A stretch of DNA of 64,000 nucleotides from Minisyncoccia bacterium (lineage in GTDB: Bacteria; Patescibacteriota; Minisyncoccia; Phycocordibacterales; UBA9973), in assembly GCA_049287045.1 (NCBI GenBank), contig JBAQFC010000008.1:22198-86197 (forward strand), written 5' to 3'. The translations under genes were made by a program, and so were the position numbers. Shown piece by piece: positions 8,982-35,874 of the stretch. How positions within the stretch are numbered: position 1 is the stretch's first letter; each line of letters starts with the position of its first letter. The notes below the pieces were generated by a model that saw only the letters and a program-made list of their open reading frames with translations, did not search any database and was not told where the DNA came from.

Positions 8982-8984
8982 TTG

Positions 8985-13624: not shown

Positions 13625-14278
13625 CTAAATTCCCTCTTTTTTCAACTCTTCTAGAAGCTCACGGGCTTTCTTGGAAATCTTACTTGGTATTTTTATTGTA
13701 ATAAGAATATACAAATCTCCGGGTTTTCCATTTTTTATTTGCTCTCCACCACCAGTCATTTTTATGGTCTGACCACTCTGAATTCCAGCTGGAATTTTTA
13801 TTACAATATCGTCATGTCCACTAATGGATATTTTTTTATCTGAACCTAAAATAGAATCAACAAGAGAAATAGATAATTCAGTCTTCATATCTCTTCCACG
13901 TGGAGTTCTCTGAGTACGAAAACCACCACCAAAAAATTCACCAAAAATATCATTTAAATCAAAATCTGCACTTCCTCCATTTTGGAAACCAGAAAAATCG
14001 AAACCTTCAAACCCTCCACCGAAACCACCTTGCTGGTATCCACCTTGTCCTCCACCACCTTGCATATTTTCAAAACCGGGACCATATTGATCGTATTTTG
14101 AACGCTTGGAATCATCAGAAAGAGTCTGGTAAGCTTCATTTACCTCCTTGAATTTAGCTTCATCGCCCTCTTTTTTATCAGGATGATATTTGTGAGCCAA
14201 CTTATGAAAAGCTTTTTTGATCTCTTCTTTTGACGCGCCTTTTTCTACCCCTAAAGTTTTGTAATAATCTTTTTTCAT
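13625..14278 (-). CDS. DnaJ-like J-domain chaperone (J + G/F + one CTD; no zinc finger)
   Basis: DYYKTLGV...HKYHPDKK J domain with HPD, a G/F-rich linker, and a DnaJ C-terminal beta domain. Confidence 0.7.
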
Positions 14279-14335
14279 TTAGTTTATGCAATATAACATA
14301 TATTATATTATTTATATAATCATTAACAAATATAT

Positions 14336-15322
14336 TTAATTATTCTTTGAAATAAGATTCAAAATTAGTTTAACAATCTTGTCTTTATGATTTGGATCAC
14401 TTTCCGCAACAAGAACTGTAAGCGCTGTTAAGGCTGAAGGGCTTAATTTTTGTATATCGAGTATATTCGCCTGCTTCAATAACCAAACAAAAGCAAAAGC
14501 TCCTGAACGCTTATTACCATCAGTAAATGGATGGTTCTTTACCATAAAATACAAAAGATGTGCAGCCTTTTCTTCAACTGTTGGATAAAGTTCATTGCCT
14601 CCGAATGACTGCATTACATTACCAACTATTCCCGACACAGAACCAACATTTCTTTCGTGACCAAAAATATCTGTCGCTTCACCTTTTTCAATAAGAATTT
14701 TTCTAAGCTCGGATAAATCTCGTGAAATTTTTTCGGAGGTGATGTTAACTTTCTTTTTTGTAAGCTTTCCTTTCGATAAAATTTCTCGATCATAAGCATC
14801 CAAAGAAAGCCAAGTATCAGCAAAAAGTGATATAAGTTCTATAGCATCTTTTGGATTAACCGCAGATTCAGCTGGCAAAAGTTTTTTAATATCATCAACA
14901 ACATTTAAAAAATGTTCATAATTTTTAGCAATTCGGTTTTTATTTATTGCAAAACCATCTACGATATAGCTTCGTAACGTTTTTGTTGCCCACTGACGAA
15001 ATTCAATAGCCTTCTTTGAACTTGTTCTATATCCAACAGCTAAAATAACATCAAGATTATAAAATTGTACCTGATACACCTTTCCATCATCTGCAGTATG
15101 TGCAAATTTTGCACATACTGAACTAGCATTAAGTTCTTTATCATTAAGAATATTTCTTATATGCTTAGTCACAACAGATCTTTCAGTCTGAAAAACATCA
15201 GCAATCTGCGCCTGAGTAGCCCACACAGTTTCACGAGAAAAATCACCACGAAGTTCAATAGCTCCATTTTTAGCTTGGTAAATAACTACATCTTTCTTTT
15301 TTAGTGTCTTTTTTAATACCAT
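14336..15322 (-). CDS. RhuM-family N-terminal domain fused to Doc/Fic toxin-like domain
   Basis: N-terminus KNGAIELRGDFSRETVWATQAQIADVFQTERSVVTKHIRNI...FYNLDVILAVGYR matches the RhuM (SPI-3) virulence family. C-terminus HPFTDGNKRSGAFAFVWLL is the Fic/Doc HxFx(D/E)GNKR motif. Confidence 0.7.
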   Translation of the reverse strand: MVLKKTLKKKDVVIYQAKNGAIELRGDFSRETVWATQAQIADVFQTERSVVTKHIRNILNDKELNASSVCAKFAHTADDGKVYQVQFYNLDVILAVGYRTSSKKAIEFRQWATKTLRSYIVDGFAINKNRIAKNYEHFLNVVDDIKKLLPAESAVNPKDAIELISLFADTWLSLDAYDREILSKGKLTKKKVNITSEKISRDLSELRKILIEKGEATDIFGHERNVGSVSGIVGNVMQSFGGNELYPTVEEKAAHLLYFMVKNHPFTDGNKRSGAFAFVWLLKQANILDIQKLSPSALTALTVLVAESDPNHKDKIVKLILNLISKNN

Positions 15323-15330
15323 ACCGAAAT

Positions 15331-15339
15331 ATTATAACA
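15331..15339 (-). promoter_or_regulatory. extended -10 (TGTTATAAT) for the RhuM-Doc gene; transcript likely leaderless
   Basis: Minus-strand TGTTATAAT lies only 8 nt upstream of the ATG at 15322. Confidence 0.3.
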
Positions 15340-15393
15340 TTTTTATGTTTTAAAATAGATAATAATTTTTTATTTTTAGTGAAGATTGAAACT

Positions 15394-15412
15394 ACATAGG
15401 AAACTCCTATGT
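15394..15412. terminator. hairpin terminator after the coupling-protein-like ATPase
   Basis: acatagg-aaact-cctatgt 7-bp stem right after the stop at 15417. Confidence 0.4.
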
Positions 15413-15416
15413 ATAA

Positions 15417-17512
15417 CTATTCTAAAATCTTCTTTAACACATCTTCAGGCACTTCTTTTATATTTTTTGGAGGTGTTGGGACTGGAATTTCTTTTTTTAC
15501 TTCCTCATTCACCGGCTCAACTTTTTTTTCTTGTGATGCTGCTGGTACTTTTTCAAAAATAAAATTTTTAAGTTTATTCATATCTTCTGCACTTGCAGAT
15601 CTATCATTATTTATAGAGGTTGCTGATACAGGATTTGATCTTTTTAAATCACTCAATGACATTGCAGGAGGTGGTACGGGAATTTTAATTTCTTTTACTT
15701 CTGGTACTACAACCGGTTTCTCTAAAACTTTATTCTCAGACAGAGTCTTATTTAAAATATCTCTCAAAGCTGTATTTTCAATAGGCTTTACTGACATCGG
15801 TATAGAACGAACAAATGGCTTTGGAATTTCTTTTTGAACTGGAGGTTCTGAAGCAATAGGAACTTTAGGAAAAATTTTTGGTTCCACAGAACCATGTCGT
15901 GCAATGTCCACTGGACGACTAGAAATAATCGGTATAATAGGCTTCAAAACTTTTGTAAGTGTTGAAAGAATTCCTGGTTTAACAGGCTCCTCAACTTTTT
16001 TAACCTCAGGTTCTTTAACAGGAGCTGGTTGTGGAACAGGTTTTATCTCTCCGGATTTAATTTTAGCTATACAATCCTTACAATATATAGGTCTTCCTGG
16101 TTCAGGTTTAAACGGCACCGATGTTTCCTTTTTACAATTAGAACAAACAGCTGGGAATTTTTCTACATTACTGATAGGACTGGTACTGACAATATTGCCA
16201 ATAGACATACCACTCCAATCATTTATTTCTTGTTCAACAACTTCTTTGGATTTACAGTAAAGAGCACGAGACATACTAATAACTTTATCTTCTACTTGTG
16301 TATCTGGATTTTTCGCTATTGGAGGCAACGTCTTCGCAGAAAAAGGTCGTGAACCGATACCATCAATCATCAGACGAAGATAAATACGGTAGTTCGGTAA
16401 ATTCACAATATCTTGTGGAGTAAATTCTGGTTCAAATTCTTTTTCTAGGAATAATGCATCATCAGCACCCACTCGGAATACAATCATCGTACCAACGTTA
16501 CCGAAGACAGCATCACGCACAGCGGAAGACCCATCAATAACAAGCTGAGCAGTATACTGGTGTGCAACGGTTAGATTCAATCGATACTTTCGAGCTTCAG
16601 ACAAAATACTAGCAAAAGAATCGGTCACGAAGTTTTGGAACTCGTCGACATATAAATAAAAGTCTTTTCTTTCATCTTCTGGAATACGCACGCGCTCCAT
16701 CGCAGCGAGCTGGATCTTGGTAATAATCATACCTCCAAGCAATGCGGAATTATCTTCACCAATACGTCCCTTGGAAACGTTCACCAAGAAAATTTTACCT
16801 TCATTCATGATATCAAAAACATTGATGGTACTCATTGATTGACCTACAACATTTCTAATGATGGAAGAAGAAAGAAATTGTCCGACTTTGTTTTGAATCG
16901 GAGCAATAGCTTCATTTCTAAATTTTTCATTCCAAGCTTCATACTCGTGAATCCAAAAAGCTTTGATGACCGGGTCTTTCAAATTTTCAATTATTTTTTT
17001 ACGGTACTCTTTGTCCACCAACATTCTAGGAATACCAAGAAGAGTCGAACCCGGAGTATCGAGCAATGCAAGAATTGTATTATTCAAAATATATTCCATA
17101 CGAGCAGACCAAGCATTCGCCCAGATCTTGGTGAAAATTCCCATCAAACCTGAAGCAACCAAATGTTTATATTTTGGATCTAGAATTTCAATAACATTAA
17201 AGCCGATATGATAATCCGTATCGGCTGGGTTGAAATAAATAACATCTTTGATACGGTCAGTTGGAATAGATTGTAAAACACTTTCAACTAATTCTCCGTG
17301 CGGATCAACAACACAAACACCATCACCGTTTTGTATATTCTGAACAATCATATTGGAAAGAAGCACGGATTTACCGGTACCTGATTTTCCGAGAACATAT
17401 ACGTGCTGGCGTCTGTCTCTGCGCTTCATACCAAAAATCTGATTCTTATCTCGAAAGGTTGTCTGACCTATATATGTCATATCTTTATTGATTGGTATTT
17501 TAGGATTCTCCA
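15417..17512 (-). CDS. type IV secretion coupling-protein-like (TraG/TraD/VirD4 family) ATPase with C-terminal zinc ribbon and Pro/Lys/Glu-rich tail
   Basis: Walker A VLGKSGTGKS, VVDPHGEL, Walker B YVDEFQNF and a TVAHQY...QL region resemble TrwB/TraG-type NTP-binding domains. Then CSNCKK...CKDC, followed by ~230 aa of PxxPxK low-complexity. Start at the internal MENPKIP (ATG 17510-17512). Confidence 0.5.
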
Positions 17513-17562
17513 TAAATTGAATTATAGCAAAAATTAAAAATAGGTGAAAGTAAAAATCCCCT

Positions 17563-17596
17563 CCAACCAAAGTCGGAGAGGATTTTTACTTTCTGC
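17563..17596. terminator. Rho-independent terminator downstream of dnaK
   Basis: aaaatcccctcc...ggagaggattttt stem-loop followed by a T-run on the minus strand. Confidence 0.5.
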
Positions 17597-17623: not shown

Positions 17624-19540
17624 TTATTTTGCAGCTTCGTCAGCGGCTGGAGTTTCACCCTCCTTAGAATCAGCTTCATGAGTAGTAGCTTCTTCTTTTG
17701 GCTCTACTGGTGGTGCACCGGCATCATCTACTTTAGAAGATGCTTTTGCCATCTCTTCACCGATCTTGGACATCTCGCTAGAAAGTTCTTCAGTAGATTT
17801 TTTAATTGCATCCAAATCTGAACCTTCTTTCACTCCACGCAATGCTGTTATTTTTTCTTCAACACCTTTCTTTGTATCTTCAGAGATTTTTCCTTCATTA
17901 TCTTTCAATGCTTTTTCTGCTGTAAAGATAGTCATGTCGGCTGTGTTTTTTGCATCAGCGACTTCTTTTTTCTTTTTATCTTCATCAGCATGAAGCTCTG
18001 CGTCTTCTTGCATTTTTTTAATATCTTCAGGTTTCAATCCAGAACTAGCTTCAATTCTGATAGTCTGAGTTTTACCACTAGTTTTTTCTTTCGCAGTAAC
18101 ATTTAAGATTCCATTGGCATCAACATCGAAAGTCACTTCAACTTGTGGCATACCACGAGGAGCTGGAGGAACACCGTCCAAGATAAATCTTCCTAGAGAT
18201 TTGTTATCAGAAGCCATTGGACGCTCTCCTTGCACGATATGAATTTCGACAGAAGTCTGATTGTCAGCTGCAGTTGAAAATGTTTGTGATTTTGAAGAAG
18301 GGATAGTTGTATTTCTTTCTACAAGTTTTGTCGCAACTCCTCCAAGTGTTTCGATACCCAAGGAAAGAGGAATAACATCAAGCAAAAGAACATCACGTAC
18401 ATCACCTTGCAATACTCCAGCTTGGACAGCAGCACCGAGAGCTACCACTTCATCAGGATTGATTGTAAGGTTTGGAGTTTTACCGAATAATTTCTTTATT
18501 TCTTCGACAATTTTTGGCATTCTGGTCTGTCCTCCGACCATTATGATTTCATTTATTTCTTCGATTTTAAATCCAGATGCTGCAACTGCACGCTTTGCAA
18601 TATCTATCGAACGAGTAATATATTCATCAGCAATAGATTCCAATTGAGCACGAGTCATTTTCAACAACAAGTGTTGAGGACCAGCTGCGGTGGAAGTTAT
18701 GAAAGGAATATTTATTTCAGTTTCAATAGCTGTTGAGAGTTCGATTTTTGCTTTTTCTGCAGCTTCATCAAGACGCTGCAATGCCAATGCATCAGTTCGT
18801 ACATCTACACCGGAAGTCTTTTTAAATTCATCAGCAATCCAATTTATAATTTTATGATCAATATCGCGTCCACCAAGGTGACTATCACCATCAGTAGATT
18901 TTACTTCAATAACATCATCACCAACTTCAAGAACAGAAATGTCAGTTGTTCCGCCTCCGAAATCGTAGACTACAATCTTTTCATTTTTCTTTGAGTTCAA
19001 ACCATAAGCCAATGCTGCAGCTGTCGGTTCATTGATAATTCTTTTTACAGTCAGGCCAGCAATTTTACCCGCATCAATAGTTGCTTGTCTTTGTGTGTCA
19101 TTAAAATATGCAGGTACAGTAATAATCGCTTCAGTGATCTTCTCACCGATCTTTGCTTCCACGTCTGTTTTTATTTTTGACAAAATCATCGCAGAAATTT
19201 CTTCTGGACGCATCCACTTGTCTCCGATTTTTACTTCAACTCCACCATTTGCGCCTTTCTGAATTTTGAAAGAAGCATTCTTTAAATCTTTCTGCACTTC
19301 CGGATCTTCAAAATTGTGACCCATAAAACGCTTGATACCATAGATGGTATTTTCAGGATTTGTAACTGCTTGTCTTTTTGCTAAAAGACCGACAAGTCTG
19401 TCTCCATTTTTTGCAACAGAAACTACCGAAGGAGTCGTACGAGCACCTTCAATATTTTCTATTATTTTTGGCGCACCACCTTCGATGATAGCGACCGCTG
19501 AGTTTGTTGTACCTAAGTCTATTCCTATTATTTTTGCCAT
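17624..19540 (-). CDS. dnaK: molecular chaperone DnaK (Hsp70)
   Basis: [18 protein letters not shown], full 638-aa Hsp70 with an acidic C-terminal tail. Confidence 0.95.
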
Positions 19541-19803: not shown

Positions 19804-20343
19804 ATGAATATGTCAACTAAACCCGACTATTCCAAGAAAATACTTAAGATTTTAGGCGAAAAAACAGCTATTTCCCTGCCTGATTTAACTAATCAAGTAA
19901 ATAGTAAAGACTGCTCTCAAAGCTCCGTATACGCCATCACACGCTCATTAAAAGGGCTTCGTGAAGCTGGTCTGATAGAAAATATTTCCTCCGGGCAAAA
20001 TGATTATGCTCGCCTAACAAAAGAGGGCAAAAAGAAAATAAACAGCCTAAAGCTCGACAGTGACACCACCCTCGTTGATACTTCCTGGGACGGGTTTTGG
20101 AGAATTATTTTACTCGACTTACCAGAGACTAGAAAAAGCGAACGTGAATCTCTTCGTTATTTATTAAAAAAGGCTGGGTTCGTGTGTCTCAAAAATTCCG
20201 CATGGATCTCCCCTTACCCTTATGAACATCTTTTTGAAAACATCAAAAAAGATTTAGAGCTCACTACTGAGATGATGATAATAAAAACTCAATTCATCGA
20301 CGAAGAAACTAAAAAGTTTTTATTTGATACTTTCAAGAAATAA
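19804..20343 (+). CDS. PaaX-family transcriptional regulator (wHTH + Cas2-fold C-domain)
   Basis: C-terminal WDGFWRIILLDLPETRKSERESLRYLLKKAGFVCLKNSAWISPYP matches the PaaX_C signature (WDG.W.....IPE..R..R..LR..L...GF..L.NSVWISP). Confidence 0.6.
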   Translation: MNMSTKPDYSKKILKILGEKTAISLPDLTNQVNSKDCSQSSVYAITRSLKGLREAGLIENISSGQNDYARLTKEGKKKINSLKLDSDTTLVDTSWDGFWRIILLDLPETRKSERESLRYLLKKAGFVCLKNSAWISPYPYEHLFENIKKDLELTTEMMIIKTQFIDEETKKFLFDTFKK

Positions 20344-20374: not shown

Positions 20375-20992
20375 TTATTCTTTATGTCCAAAAACTTTTA
20401 CTCGAGCAGCTCTTAGTACTTTGTCTTTTGTTTTGTATCCTTTTTGTAAAACCTGAGCAATAGTGTCATCTTTAGTTTGGTCAACAGTTTCTACAACCTC
20501 CACAGACTGATGAATTTCAGGATTAAATTTATCACCTACTTGCCCAATAGATTTTATACCGTATTCTTCAAAGATATTACTCATCTGAGAATAGATATAT
20601 TCCACACCAGTCCTCCATGTTGCATCTACTTTCTCCCAAGCTTCTTTGTTTGAGAAAGCCATATCGAAACTATCCATTACAGAAAGGAAATTTTCTAAAA
20701 TTCTTTCTTGAATAATATTTCTGAAATTTCTATTTCTTTCTTCTTCTTCCTTACGGTAATTCACAAAGTCCGCTCGCTCTTTCTGCCAGCCGGTTAGGTA
20801 TTCTTCCTTTTGAGCTTTGAGTTCTTTTATATCAGCCCTAAATTTCTTTAAAGTTTTCTTTAAATCTTCCTCACCGTCATCATTGAATTCAAACTCAACA
20901 ACTTCTGATTCTGGTTCTGTTGGTTCTTTAATTATTTCCCCGCCTGCATCGCTTTGCGAAGCATTGCGGGCAGGTTCATTTTCTTCACTCAT
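20375..20992 (-). CDS. grpE: nucleotide exchange factor GrpE
   Basis: Acidic N-terminus, coiled coil, and the C-terminal GrpE beta domain (FNPEIHQSVEVVET...AQVLQKGYK). Confidence 0.8.
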   Translation of the reverse strand: MSEENEPARNASQSDAGGEIIKEPTEPESEVVEFEFNDDGEEDLKKTLKKFRADIKELKAQKEEYLTGWQKERADFVNYRKEEEERNRNFRNIIQERILENFLSVMDSFDMAFSNKEAWEKVDATWRTGVEYIYSQMSNIFEEYGIKSIGQVGDKFNPEIHQSVEVVETVDQTKDDTIAQVLQKGYKTKDKVLRAARVKVFGHKE

Positions 20993-33397: not shown

Positions 33398-34651
33398 TTA
33401 TATAGGCAGATTAGAAGGAGGAGCTGCCTCTTTTGATTCAATACGTTCAAGAGTAGGAACCTGTAATATCTGACCTGGAAAATGAAAAATAGTAGCCAAC
33501 TCTTCAGTGTTAAGAACCGAAATATTTGGATGACTATATTTTGGAAAAAATAATGAAACAGGAAAAGGAATTGGAATATGGTGTATAAGAGGTGGGTAAA
33601 AGAAAGCTCTCTCTCTGTACTCTTCAAGCATTCTGTCTTTAAATCTAAAAAGAGAAGTAGAAGTGTATTGCCAAAAATGACTGAAACTTGTTGTATTCAC
33701 TCTCTTAAAACTATTCAAGGATGCTGACTCATACTGGCGGAAAATTAAACGAAGATTACGCTTGGTATTGTTTTGAAAATTTTCTTTCTTTGCCACATAA
33801 CAAACTCTTATTCCTGTATCGAACCCAACCTTGGCGCTTTTTTTGGTCATACCTTCCAAGACAGGATCCAACCATTTTGGTAATAATTTAAATGAAGATT
33901 CACCCTCTCCTTTTGTATATTTTTCGGTAAGCTCTTTCATTACATGTTCTGATTCTTCAAGCCATCCATGATGTTTTGATCTTGTGCCATGAGTATGAAA
34001 TTTTTTTTGTGAAGGTGCTATAACTATTTGCATCCATACTTGTTCACCTTTTTCGATTGAACCAAAAAGTTCTATAACCGGAGAAATCGGATCAACCTTG
34101 AATTCTTCTTTAGGGTCTTTATCTAATCCAAAATCAACATAAGTTTTAATAGGATATGCATCAGGTTTTGCTAAAGTAAATTCACACCCCCAAAGATCCC
34201 ATCCGCTCTGAGGTGATATTTTATTAACAGCTAAAGTATAATCCTCTGCTACTTTTACTTGTGCTTGAGGATACTGCGCATACAATTGAGTCTCGATTAA
34301 ACTCTTCATTCGGGATGGAGCTCGAAGATAAAAATGAACCTGACCTCCAATAGAAACAATCTCAAGTGAAAACCACAACTGAACTGCTCCAAGCCAGTAT
34401 GTTTCAAGAAATCCTTTATTACTTAAAGAATAAAGTCCGTTAGTAAAAAATAATTCCATTGCCTTAGGTGATCTTAAAACATCTCGTGGAGGAACTATTT
34501 CAAGCAGAACCCAATCAATACCAGCAATGAAATCATGTTCTACATAGTGATGCCAAAAAAGCCATGCAAAATGAGCAAGGAGTGCGAACCCAACAAAGGG
34601 CCAAACTGCGGAAAAAATATACGAAGAAAAATAAACTATTGAATCAACCAT
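33398..34651 (-). CDS. hypothetical membrane protein
   Basis: 417 aa with two N-terminal TM helices and a Trp-rich soluble domain; no family assigned. Confidence 0.4.
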   Translation of the reverse strand: MVDSIVYFSSYIFSAVWPFVGFALLAHFAWLFWHHYVEHDFIAGIDWVLLEIVPPRDVLRSPKAMELFFTNGLYSLSNKGFLETYWLGAVQLWFSLEIVSIGGQVHFYLRAPSRMKSLIETQLYAQYPQAQVKVAEDYTLAVNKISPQSGWDLWGCEFTLAKPDAYPIKTYVDFGLDKDPKEEFKVDPISPVIELFGSIEKGEQVWMQIVIAPSQKKFHTHGTRSKHHGWLEESEHVMKELTEKYTKGEGESSFKLLPKWLDPVLEGMTKKSAKVGFDTGIRVCYVAKKENFQNNTKRNLRLIFRQYESASLNSFKRVNTTSFSHFWQYTSTSLFRFKDRMLEEYRERAFFYPPLIHHIPIPFPVSLFFPKYSHPNISVLNTEELATIFHFPGQILQVPTLERIESKEAAPPSNLPI

Positions 34652-34845: not shown

Positions 34846-35874
34846 TTAAGCTAAAGTATAAAGTCCGTTTTTGTTCTTCTTAAAGTATTTTGGATTCTGT
34901 AGATTTACTAAAATAGTATTCTTTTTAAAATATCTTTCTTTCATTACTCTTTCTACTACATCTTCTTTTGAAAGTGGTCCTTCTCTTTTTAGAATGTCAC
35001 GGATAACTTCACGAGCGATTCCTGTCTTGTAGCCCCATTCTGCAAGAGCGTACATTCCACGTCCAACAAGGACAAAGCGAGGGTCTTTGATAAGTTCATT
35101 GTGACAAGTTGCATAGTGTGTCTTTCTTCCAAAAGTTTTAGAAATAGAATCAGCAACTTCACGGAAGTGCATAGGATTACCATGTTTTCTCATTACTAAA
35201 AAGGCATAGTCTTTTACTCCACGAGTGTGAATATTTGGTGATGTTGATTTACCCCATTCTCCAAGAGGATTCTTTGATATAGTTTTAGAAATTGTCAGCC
35301 ATCTCTTAGCCATCTCTTCATTTTTGAACTGTTCAGAAACATCTTTCATTTGATCAAAAAACTTTTTAATCATTTCAGTTTCAGGAACAAGATCTGCATC
35401 ACTCAAACTTGAATAAAGTTTTTTTAGAGAATCATGAACTTTAGAAGCCATATCATCATCAATACTCCAACGTGTTTGGAAATGATCGTCTTCACGATGT
35501 TTCTTGAAGGAATCACCTAAAACCATATAAAAATGAATGTGGTTCTGAGTAGCTTTATCTTTTGATATTGAAGGCAAAAATTCATGTTCAGCGACAATTG
35601 AACCAAGAGAATGTATCAATTGTTTTATCTCATCAAAAGTAACCTGTTCTGCTTTATAAGCATCAGATTTCTTGATTGAAGCCAAAGCGGCATCTTCAAT
35701 CTGTCGAACACGTTCTCGTGTGATACTGTATTTCTTACCGATTTCTTCTAGAGTTTTACGTTGAGCATCAGCAGTCAAACCAAAACGATTCATGATAACA
35801 TCGCTCGCACGATCCTGAAGATGTGAAGTTATTTTCTTTGTTACTTGTTTTGGTTTAAATGATATTGTTGACAT
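34846..35874 (-). CDS. DNA-binding protein with N-terminal sigma-70 region-4-like HTH and C-terminal HARE-HTH domain
   Basis: SITRERVRQIEDAAL is the sigma r4 motif. The C-terminus FREVADSI...IKDPRFVLVGRGMYALAEWGY matches the HARE-HTH pattern seen in the RNAP delta subunit. Confidence 0.5.
   Translation of the reverse strand: MSTISFKPKQVTKKITSHLQDRASDVIMNRFGLTADAQRKTLEEIGKKYSITRERVRQIEDAALASIKKSDAYKAEQVTFDEIKQLIHSLGSIVAEHEFLPSISKDKATQNHIHFYMVLGDSFKKHREDDHFQTRWSIDDDMASKVHDSLKKLYSSLSDADLVPETEMIKKFFDQMKDVSEQFKNEEMAKRWLTISKTISKNPLGEWGKSTSPNIHTRGVKDYAFLVMRKHGNPMHFREVADSISKTFGRKTHYATCHNELIKDPRFVLVGRGMYALAEWGYKTGIAREVIRDILKREGPLSKEDVVERVMKERYFKKNTILVNLQNPKYFKKNKNGLYTLA

Follow-up and report, generated by a model that had tools for sequence, protein, structure and literature searches.

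A coupling-protein-like ATPase gene and a RhuM/Doc toxin-like gene between dnaK and a dnaJ-like gene of a Minisyncoccia bacterium: probably a core gene and a mobile gene that are neighbours by chance

Why do a gene for an ATPase resembling type IV coupling proteins (T4CPs) and a gene for a RhuM/Doc toxin-like fusion lie next to each other, between dnaK and a dnaJ-like gene? We addressed this question for a 64,000-nucleotide (nt) stretch of DNA from a Minisyncoccia bacterium (contig JBAQFC010000008.1, positions 22,198 to 86,197), hereafter the window. The window is AT-rich Patescibacteria DNA with a G+C content of 34.6%, and proteins 100% identical to the ATPase and to RhuM/Doc are recorded from a 'Minisyncoccia bacterium' metagenome-assembled genome (MAG). 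A preliminary description had placed dnaK, the ATPase, RhuM/Doc and the dnaJ-like gene in this order on the minus strand, which the open reading frame (ORF) coordinates bear out, and had offered two accounts of the pair, a minimal effector-plus-coupling-protein module or a mobile or toxin island inside a heat-shock operon. Our comparisons favour another reading, to which we assign a probability of roughly 0.75, namely that these are two functionally independent genes, a core ATPase and a mobile RhuM/Doc toxin, adjacent by chance. The four genes are the following.

17624-19540, minus strand: dnaK, 638 amino acids (aa); an ORF whose product is 69-89% identical to the dnaK products of 65 relatives, upstream of the ATPase gene on the same strand
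15417-17513, minus strand: T4CP-like ATPase (TrwB/VirD4/TraD type), predicted to be soluble, 698 aa (Pfam, NCBIfam, homologues)
14336-15322, minus strand: RhuM/Doc fusion, 328 aa (Pfam, PADLOC PDC-S23, NCBI name)
13625-14278, minus strand: short dnaJ-like gene, 217 aa, with a J domain, a G/F region and one DnaJ_C domain (Pfam, NCBIfam)

Related loci were collected by a scan of one genome per species, which yielded 80 ATPase loci, and the genes of the window were mapped onto them by tblastn. In 65 of the 80 species, the same strand carries dnaK upstream of the ATPase gene, with a gap of at most 250 nt in 35 loci; of the other 15 loci, 13 have no more than 2.7 kb of upstream sequence and two have no dnaK despite 4.7-7.7 kb of it. 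All 80 loci have chaperone and ribosomal neighbours and form one Nomurabacteria-like group, in which the rpoA-L17-L13-S9-grpE synteny is kept too. The ATPase has more than 8000 homologues, the best 120 of which are 62-76% identical over the full length; identity in related species is ∼65% end to end, and the motor domain is nearly invariant in the alignment. These comparisons indicate that the ATPase is a vertically inherited core gene of the Nomurabacteria-like (Paceibacteria) lineage. Because it is a core neighbour of dnaK with housekeeping-like conservation, it is not part of any island, and the island account fails for this gene.

Apart from the window, only one of the 80 loci has RhuM/Doc at this position, the nearest species-level locus, L001, from a 'Candidatus Paceibacterota' MAG with a 98% identical protein; synteny thus speaks for an insertion of RhuM/Doc and against one of the ATPase. 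More than 7000 RhuM/Doc homologues were found, many of them in Taylor-, Giovannoni-, Vogel- and Zambryskibacteria at 68-90% identity. Seven that were examined (71-90% identity) lie in seven different contexts, none near dnaK or a T4CP-like gene. Defence or mobile-element genes are the neighbours in five of the seven and housekeeping genes in two. The neighbours include (1) an SLFN-type helicase and YgjP; (2) Phd/ParE, Bro-N and a methyltransferase; (3) DpnI, TIR and SMEK; (4) a second RhuM gene, Z1 and N6_Mtase; and (5) DpnI and Peptidase_S24. DNA similarity to the gene of the 90% identical homologue at L081 runs from 22 nt before the ATG (15344) to 14 nt past the stop codon, and since the shared DNA stops at those borders, the mobile unit appears to be the gene with its -10 box. 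Full-length homologues of 33-42% identity are present on plasmids of Vibrio, Aeromonas, Shewanella, Pseudomonas, Legionella and Bacteroidales; a scan of IMG/VR gave no confirmed relative. A foreign base composition was considered and rejected, the GC content of the gene (0.332) being no outlier against the gene mean of 0.352 ± 0.040. No flanking repeats, integrase or tRNA were found at the site, the nearest tRNA being at 8984. On this comparative evidence, we regard RhuM/Doc as an accessory, mobile member of a single-gene toxin family, a family to whose hosts the Patescibacteria are now added. To this extent the island account holds.

The site itself is a variable slot. A shorter paralogue of the ATPase, ATPase2 (∼470 aa, 44% identical, without zinc ribbon or tail; e.g., L014:12146-13560), is present in 52 loci, always directly upstream of the short dnaJ-like gene. 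The slot extends from the ATPase gene treated here (ATPase1) to ATPase2 or dnaJ; it has no ORF of at least 60 aa in 13 of the 57 loci analysed and reaches up to ∼7 kb elsewhere. Its cargo consists of one to five tandem copies of a Cys-rich family of ∼555-600 aa (62 ORFs in 57 loci), an opposite-strand RsmE-like methyltransferase gene (16 loci), an ABC exporter (6 loci), a DUF5674 gene with a 97-aa gene (6-7 loci) and, once, an S8 peptidase. The dnaJ-like gene occurs without ATPase2 at five loci (L001, L049, L068, L069 and L074) and in the window, where tblastn detected no gene matching ATPase2, the Cys-rich family or the DUF5674 pair. Two widespread and unexplained T4CP homologues are thereby placed in a defined and conserved locus, dnaK - ATPase1 - variable slot - ATPase2 - short dnaJ.

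If the two genes formed part of a heat-shock operon, their expression would be linked to stress, as the preliminary description proposed. This proposal is unsupported by the elements that surround them, listed here.

17546-17593, minus strand: terminator-like hairpin of 20 pairs followed by a T run, just 3′ of the dnaK stop codon (consensus scan; putative terminator)
17521-17529, minus strand: extended -10 box TGcTATAAT, 7 nt away from the ATG of the ATPase gene, whose start is leaderless-like (sequence scan)
15331-15339, minus strand: extended -10 box TGtTATAAT, 8 nt away from the ATG of RhuM/Doc (sequence)

A 20-bp hairpin thus follows dnaK, and each of the two ATGs has a -10 box of its own. 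Stem ends rich in G+C and followed by T runs were also seen upstream of the ATPase gene in relatives, and a TAnAAT hexamer lies 10-16 nt before the ATPase start codon in 56 of ∼76 relatives, the remaining spacer sequence not being conserved. RhuM/Doc had been described as leaderless, which its -10 box makes plausible but not peculiar: a TAnAAT hexamer begins 10-16 nt 5′ of the ATG in 17 of 63 genes of the window, and only 5 of the 63 are preceded by a Shine-Dalgarno-like sequence. On the opposite strand of the hairpin, an Rfam match to ohsC_RNA (E 0.7, 25.8 bits against a gathering score of 50) is noise.

What kind of ATPase is encoded beside dnaK? The 717-aa ORF first described (15417-17570) exists and begins at TTG, but translation more likely starts at the ATG at 17513, for a protein of 698 aa, in view of a public record of this length (P0001, 100% identity), the N-termini of homologues and the extended -10 box 7 nt upstream. 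The TraG/VirD4-like call was borne out by profile searches, as were the calls of RhuM and Fic/Doc domains in the neighbouring protein, all with Pfam matches above the curated cut-offs. For the ATPase these were TrwB_AAD_bind (45.9 bits, cut-off 20.5, E 4.9e-12, profile positions 10-311 of 387), DUF87, T4SS-DNA_transf (28.4 bits, cut-off 20.1), TraG-D_C (24.4, cut-off 22) and zf_Tbcl_2. A Walker B motif, YLYVDE, lies at residue 286, and the other features of the protein are as follows.

17367-17390, minus strand: Walker A motif, GKSGTGKS at residue 42 (motif scan)
∼16059-16160, minus strand: CxxC-x17-CxxC zinc ribbon (treble-clef; Pfam zf_Tbcl_2 and also the NCBIfam CxxC-x17-CxxC domain)
15420-15998, minus strand: P/K/V/E-rich tail, residues 506-698, ending in the conserved peptide KEVPEDVLKKILE (homologue alignment)

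The sole PDB sequence match of the ATPase family profile was TrwB, which was also the top Foldseek match of the ATPase model (weak, pLDDT 55.5, the predicted local distance difference test score), followed by DndH-C, Cagbeta, VirB4 and HerA. Since AlphaFold modelled both proteins with low confidence (pLDDT 55.5 and 59.5), these fold matches only corroborate the sequence profiles. The best plasmid matches are 27-40% identical, and identity to T4CPs in real (monoderm-type) conjugation clusters is 30-33%; the figure is 33% for the T4CP encoded in a conjugation cluster of Embleya that also includes PrgI, a relaxase and a VirB4-like ATPase. A HerA/FtsK-type housekeeping identity, named in the preliminary description as the competing classification, was rejected, as profile matches are better for the TrwB/TraD clade than for HerA. 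A related Patescibacteria contig encodes a canonical FtsK that has a four-transmembrane domain. No membrane segment is evident in the ATPase (Kyte-Doolittle scores over 19 residues reach at most 1.2, and 0.7 within the first 60 aa), and in relatives the dnaK-ATPase spacers, 31-150 nt long, are too short for an N-terminal extension. By its profiles the ATPase belongs to the T4CP clade, yet it is predicted to be soluble. Its tail looks disordered, with conserved islands (ALRDILNK, SLSDLK and DRSASAEDMNKLK) and a near-invariant terminal peptide, KEVPEDVL(K/R)K(I/V)LE; the islands and the end peptide may be docking motifs. A search for literature on CxxC-x17-CxxC in this context found nothing useful.

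The membrane part that is missing from this protein has a candidate elsewhere in the window. An exhaustive HMMER search with the ATPase returned 24,029 cluster representatives at E ≤ 0.001, and ∼56 of the best 150 carry 230-460 aa in front of the motor. In the three full-length extended representatives that were inspected, this part consists of membrane helices or a DUF8128-like domain of ∼350 aa. The corresponding gene in the window is the following.

33398-34651, minus strand: DUF8128-like membrane protein, 417 aa, with an N-terminal hydrophobic hairpin (tblastn, BLASTP)

Its product aligns with residues 6-420 of the protein P0391 (BLASTP, 29% identity, E 4e-41) and ends, with '...APPSNLPI', exactly at the start of the ATPase part of P0391. 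A Sigma70_r4 gene (34846-35874) lies upstream of it, and the fused gene at L180 has the same neighbour; the L180 product is recorded as DUF8128 + TrwB_AAD_bind, on a 7.8-kb contig without dnaK. As judged from these alignments, the 417-aa protein corresponds to the N-terminal half of T4CP-like proteins that in other Patescibacteria are fused, with a DUF8128 membrane domain of ∼400 aa ahead of the motor, and has been separated by gene fission. Because it matches the fused extension and shares the Sigma70_r4 neighbour, we conclude that the T4CP homologue is split in this lineage, with the motor half beside dnaK. The split names the DUF8128 protein as a candidate partner of the motor.

Most T4CPs carry an N-terminal transmembrane domain that anchors the motor to the membrane. 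The ATPase shares with TrwB (R388), VirD4 and TraD the P-loop motor of the FtsK/HerA superfamily with its Walker A and B motifs. It differs from them in having no membrane anchor in the same polypeptide, the candidate anchor being encoded separately at 33398-34651; in its C-terminal zinc ribbon and long disordered tail; and in its gene, which is chromosomal, core and vertically inherited, with no linked relaxase or VirB4. No type IV secretion system (T4SS) gene, such as one for VirB4 or a relaxase, was present in the window among the ORFs profiled, which included all large ones. Of the 5,713 VirD4-type T4CP homologues that a recent survey counted in 2,918 Patescibacteria genomes, just 148 are near virB4; the survey considers exaptation of these homologues possible and reports that in Ca. 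Southlakia t4cp is dispensable, in contrast to the essential other genes of the T4SS (Quinonero-Coronel et al. 2025, PMC12102498). The frequency given there, about two copies per genome, fits the ATPase1 and ATPase2 pattern, and our ATPase set appears to be the same gene set. In the passages of that paper that were searched (PMC12102498), the flanking by dnaK and dnaJ, the DUF8128 split, the zinc-ribbon/tail variant and the slot between the paralogues are not mentioned, 'dnaK' having 0 occurrences. A T4CP-like match in Patescibacteria is not to be taken as evidence for a local secretion or mobile module.

For RhuM/Doc, the Pfam scores above the curated cut-offs were 79.6 bits for Virulence_RhuM and 50.3 bits for Fic, and the domains are arranged as follows.

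∼14873-15298, minus strand: RhuM winged-helix domain (Pfam)
∼14348-14725, minus strand: Doc domain (Pfam)
14507-14533, minus strand: Doc catalytic motif HPFTDGNKR, residues 264-272 (motif scan)

Residues H264, P265, D268, G269, N270, K271 and R272 are invariant in 50 homologues, and a pattern scan found neither the Fic motif HxFx(D/E)GNGRxxR nor the inhibitory helix (S/T)xxxE(G/N) in the protein. By these motifs the 'Fic' domain is of the Doc type, so that of the combined label 'RhuM-Doc/Fic' given earlier the Doc part is kept and the Fic part dropped. Foldseek aligned the domain with P1 Doc (3K33 and 3DD7) with template modelling (TM) scores of 0.63-0.71 and a root-mean-square deviation (rmsd) of 3.3-3.7 Å over ∼135 columns (pLDDT of the model's C-terminal domain ∼70), and the closest PDB sequence match is a 'death-on-curing family protein'. 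The Doc protein of phage P1 phosphorylates EF-Tu. Like it, RhuM/Doc has the motif HxFx(D/N)(A/G)NKR and the helical Fic/Doc fold; unlike P1 Doc with its partner Phd, it has a fused N-terminal RhuM domain of ∼190 aa and no adjacent Phd-like antitoxin gene. A small antitoxin-like ORF had been proposed as something to look for, and none was found beside the gene: the flanking gaps, just 94 and 57 nt, leave no room for one, and the only small overlapping ORF is an alternative frame inside the gene. The PADLOC profile PDC-S23 is matched end to end (E 9.5e-108, residues 9-327 against positions 4-326 of 327); its family has the same architecture and length as RhuM/Doc and thousands of homologues, with no structural difference. 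We found no paper on PDC-S23. The NCBI product name is 'virulence protein RhuM/Fic/DOC family protein'. A defence role, which would mean anti-phage activity, is suggested by association only, through the gene neighbours of the homologues. RhuM-family genes have been reported to be enriched beside type I restriction-modification (R-M) and BREX genes (PMC9881135).

How might a toxin gene without an antitoxin be kept in check? Comparison of homologues disclosed an inverted repeat within the RhuM coding region.

15094-15120, minus strand: 27-nt perfect palindrome CAGTATGTGCAAA-A-TTTGCACATACTG; its codons specify S-V-C-A-K-F-A-H-T, which lies in the RhuM domain's first wing strand (homologue comparison)

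In 88 unique RhuM-family genes, an inverted repeat occupies this codon position, with arm sequences that differ. Other arm pairs are CAGTATGTTCCA/TGGAACATACTG, AACTATCCGGAA/TTCCGGATAGTT, GCAATGTGCA/TGCACATTGC, CAGTTGTTGCA/TGCAACAACTG and, with one G·T pair, AACTTGTAAGGA/TTCTTACAAGTT; AACTATCCGGAATTTCCGGATAGTT is the palindrome of another RhuM subfamily. The encoded peptides change with the arms (VCAKFAHT, VCSILEHT, TIRNFRIV, NVQKMHIA, VVAKNATT and TCKEFLQV). The arms are 10-14 bp long with an odd spacer of 1-9 nt (L081-L095, L096-L175, L087, L088 and L176-L179), and in 75 of the 88 genes the repeat is the longest perfect hairpin of the entire ORF. Stems of at least 10 pairs occur in 78% of the genes, compared with 2.1% of redraws with synonymous codons that preserve the peptide. 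Each sequence was centred on its own palindrome centre, which in 86 of the 88 lies at one of two adjacent positions. In an ungapped alignment of 39 sequences, 92.8% of cells pair, compared with 62% in shuffles (0/500) and 21-46% in slid controls; compensatory changes were seen in 10 of 11 pairs, and the covariation score was 0.763 against 0.189 (0/500 shuffles). The palindrome is also present in homologues from several phyla, among them those of a Legionella plasmid, Phocaeicola, a Streptococcus satellite phage and the Wolbachia phage WO.

As RNA, the palindrome folds at -16.2 kcal/mol (z = -3.07); the stem mismatches, 5 G·T and 3 A·C, do not tell an RNA from a DNA element. We lean towards a double-stranded palindromic binding site rather than an RNA hairpin because, in the sequences compared, complementarity extends to within 1 nt of the centre in many subfamilies and the centre is A/T-rich. 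A second half-site was looked for in promoters and flanks, where 7 sporadic matches in 91 loci are consistent with chance; Rfam gave no family at the gathering threshold and two chance-level matches by E-value (0.7 and 0.9), and we found no literature linking RhuM with palindromes. We consider it an even bet that the palindrome is a functional cis element within the ORF, be it an operator for the protein's own winged-helix dimer or an mRNA hairpin, and that RhuM-family genes, RhuM/Doc among them, are thereby self-contained, self-regulated cassettes able to land anywhere. The co-varying palindrome offers a handle on the control of an antitoxin-less toxin.

Taken together, these data suggest the following picture. 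The ATPase would be the soluble motor half of a VirD4/TraD-type homologue carried by nearly all Patescibacteria, its gene beside dnaK having presumably gained the C-terminal zinc ribbon and the disordered tail with its conserved end peptide. It may assemble into a hexameric ring that docks at the membrane on the DUF8128 protein, binding through the zinc ribbon and the peptide KEVPEDVLKKILE, and that pumps a polymer (DNA or protein), either for a Patescibacteria T4SS encoded elsewhere or in an exapted role. RhuM/Doc would have landed in a slot that holds other cargo in relatives. Its Doc-type domain may phosphorylate a translation factor, as P1 Doc does EF-Tu, and arrest growth when triggered, for example by phage, the RhuM winged helix acting as a sensor or regulator and the palindrome in its own coding sequence as a cis element that keeps the protein in check. 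Several points weigh against reading the two as independent genes of these kinds. The ATPase falls short of the NCBIfam equivalog cut-offs (SXT_TraD, 52.4 bits against 366; CD1115 VirD4-like, 34.7 against 250), as does RhuM/Doc for DOC_P1 (30.8 against 38.65), and the AlphaFold models of both are of low confidence, with pLDDT 55.5 for the ATPase and 59.5 for RhuM/Doc. PDC-S23 is a candidate, non-validated defence gene, and the only characterised RhuM+Fic fusion that we found, BifA, is reported to be host-directed (PMC6529018). Both proteins are known in this lineage from sequence alone, the negative results for T4SS genes and ATPase2 cover 64 kb of the genome, and the tight dnaK-ATPase-(ATPase2)-dnaJ synteny across the order could mean a tie to the chaperones.

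That tie would make the gene order functional, the ATPase and its paralogue forming, together with DnaK and the short DnaJ, a chaperone-assisted translocase. Most of the 80 species indeed retain this order, with 0 to 7 kb of varying content separating the two ATPase genes, ATPase2 is always directly upstream of the dnaJ-like gene, and the conserved end peptide of the tail is typical of a docking motif. However, the fused DUF8128-ATPase gene of L180 adjoins Sigma70_r4 with no dnaK on its contig, the terminator-like hairpin and a separate -10 box stand between dnaK and the ATPase gene, and ATPase2 has been lost from the site in the window and at other loci. The adjacency may also be inherited order, because the 80 loci are one group that has kept its ribosomal synteny too. 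We therefore think a chaperone-assisted translocase unlikely, and the ATPase is probably not tightly tied to the chaperones. The recruitment of RhuM/Doc as an effector by the adjacent ATPase, the module proposed at the outset, is highly improbable. It could draw on the genuine T4CP-clade homology of the ATPase, on a Patescibacteria T4SS elsewhere in the genome (PMC12102498) and on the reported action of BifA on host cells (PMC6529018). It fails on the finding that the ATPase is a conserved core neighbour of dnaK, an outcome that the preliminary description had itself named as speaking against the module: the ATPase is present without RhuM/Doc at this spot in 78 other species, and none of the seven homologues examined elsewhere has such an ATPase nearby. 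Each gene has its own promoter-like box, VirB4, relaxase and other T4SS genes are absent from the 64 kb, and Pfam recognised no T4SS signal domain in RhuM/Doc.

RhuM/Doc might instead be secreted or delivered by contact and act on the host cell of an epibiont. Its likeness to BifA of Streptococcus equi subsp. zooepidemicus, a RhuM + Fic protein described as a host-directed virulence factor that acts on human endothelial moesin, is one of architecture, with an N-terminal RhuM and a C-terminal Fic/Doc domain and a catalytic His near residue 250; entry of BifA into host cells and its promotion of moesin phosphorylation have been reported (PMC6529018). Patescibacteria depend on hosts (PMC12102498), and the RhuM/Doc family is unusually conserved across their lineages (71-90% identity). 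Yet no signal peptide or hydrophobic N-terminus is visible in RhuM/Doc, the neighbours of its homologues are restriction, TIR, methyltransferase and toxin-antitoxin genes rather than secretion genes, the enrichment of RhuM-family genes is beside type I R-M and BREX (PMC9881135), and the family is widespread in free-living bacteria and their plasmids, so that a host-directed effector seems decidedly unlikely. It is scarcely credible that the Doc/Fic domain regulates the neighbouring Hsp70 in the way that eukaryotic FICD AMPylates BiP. RhuM/Doc is two genes from dnaK, and FICD-BiP complexes are among its weak fold matches, but those matches have an rmsd of ∼20 Å and are meaningless, the motif is of the Doc (kinase) and not the Fic (AMPylase) type, and the gene lies near dnaK only in this pair of species; a FICD-like regulation of DnaK was rejected on these three grounds. 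The reading of a core ATPase gene and a mobile toxin gene that met by chance thus retains our preference. Both proteins are of known kinds, and the potential for novelty is in the RhuM palindrome, the split of the T4CP gene and the uncharacterised Cys-rich family.

The wider gene order differs from the canonical one as well. The pair had been taken to interrupt grpE-dnaK-dnaJ genes that are normally contiguous. On the minus strand, the order is rpoA, L17, L13, S9, grpE, dnaK, ATPase, RhuM/Doc, dnaJ-like and L25, with one plus-strand gene after grpE.

20375-20992, minus strand: grpE
19804-20343, plus strand: PaaX-like regulator between grpE and dnaK, divergent from dnaK (Pfam PaaX_M; same position in relatives)

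Because the PaaX-like gene sits between grpE and dnaK, the three genes are not contiguous in this clade in any case; the hairpin after dnaK and the one to eight genes between dnaK and the dnaJ-like gene in relatives are further departures from the canonical arrangement. The PaaX-like protein combines a winged helix with a Cas2-like PaaX_M domain and may be the heat-shock regulator in place of HrcA. The dnaJ-like protein, the sole DnaJ at this locus, lacks the zinc-finger domain (Pfam/NCBIfam), and this truncated form is kept downstream of the slot in 57 relatives.

Two kinds of slot cargo recur elsewhere. Proteins of the Cys-rich family begin with CxxC...CxxC followed by many CxxC repeats (e.g., L002:12102-13853 and 13897-15582); five tandem copies occur at L037:12680-21611, and members also lie between grpE and dnaK in L020 and L029. 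The family gave no Pfam, NCBIfam or PADLOC match and has at least 7,982 homologues; among the best 120, the names given by the source are all 'hypothetical protein', most being unnamed. The pair of a DUF5674 gene and a gene of ∼97-111 aa recurs in the slot at L018:16502-17152, L082:4649-5334 and five other loci. It was also seen two genes upstream of RhuM/Doc in L082 and L083, and could be a small toxin-antitoxin-like or defence pair.

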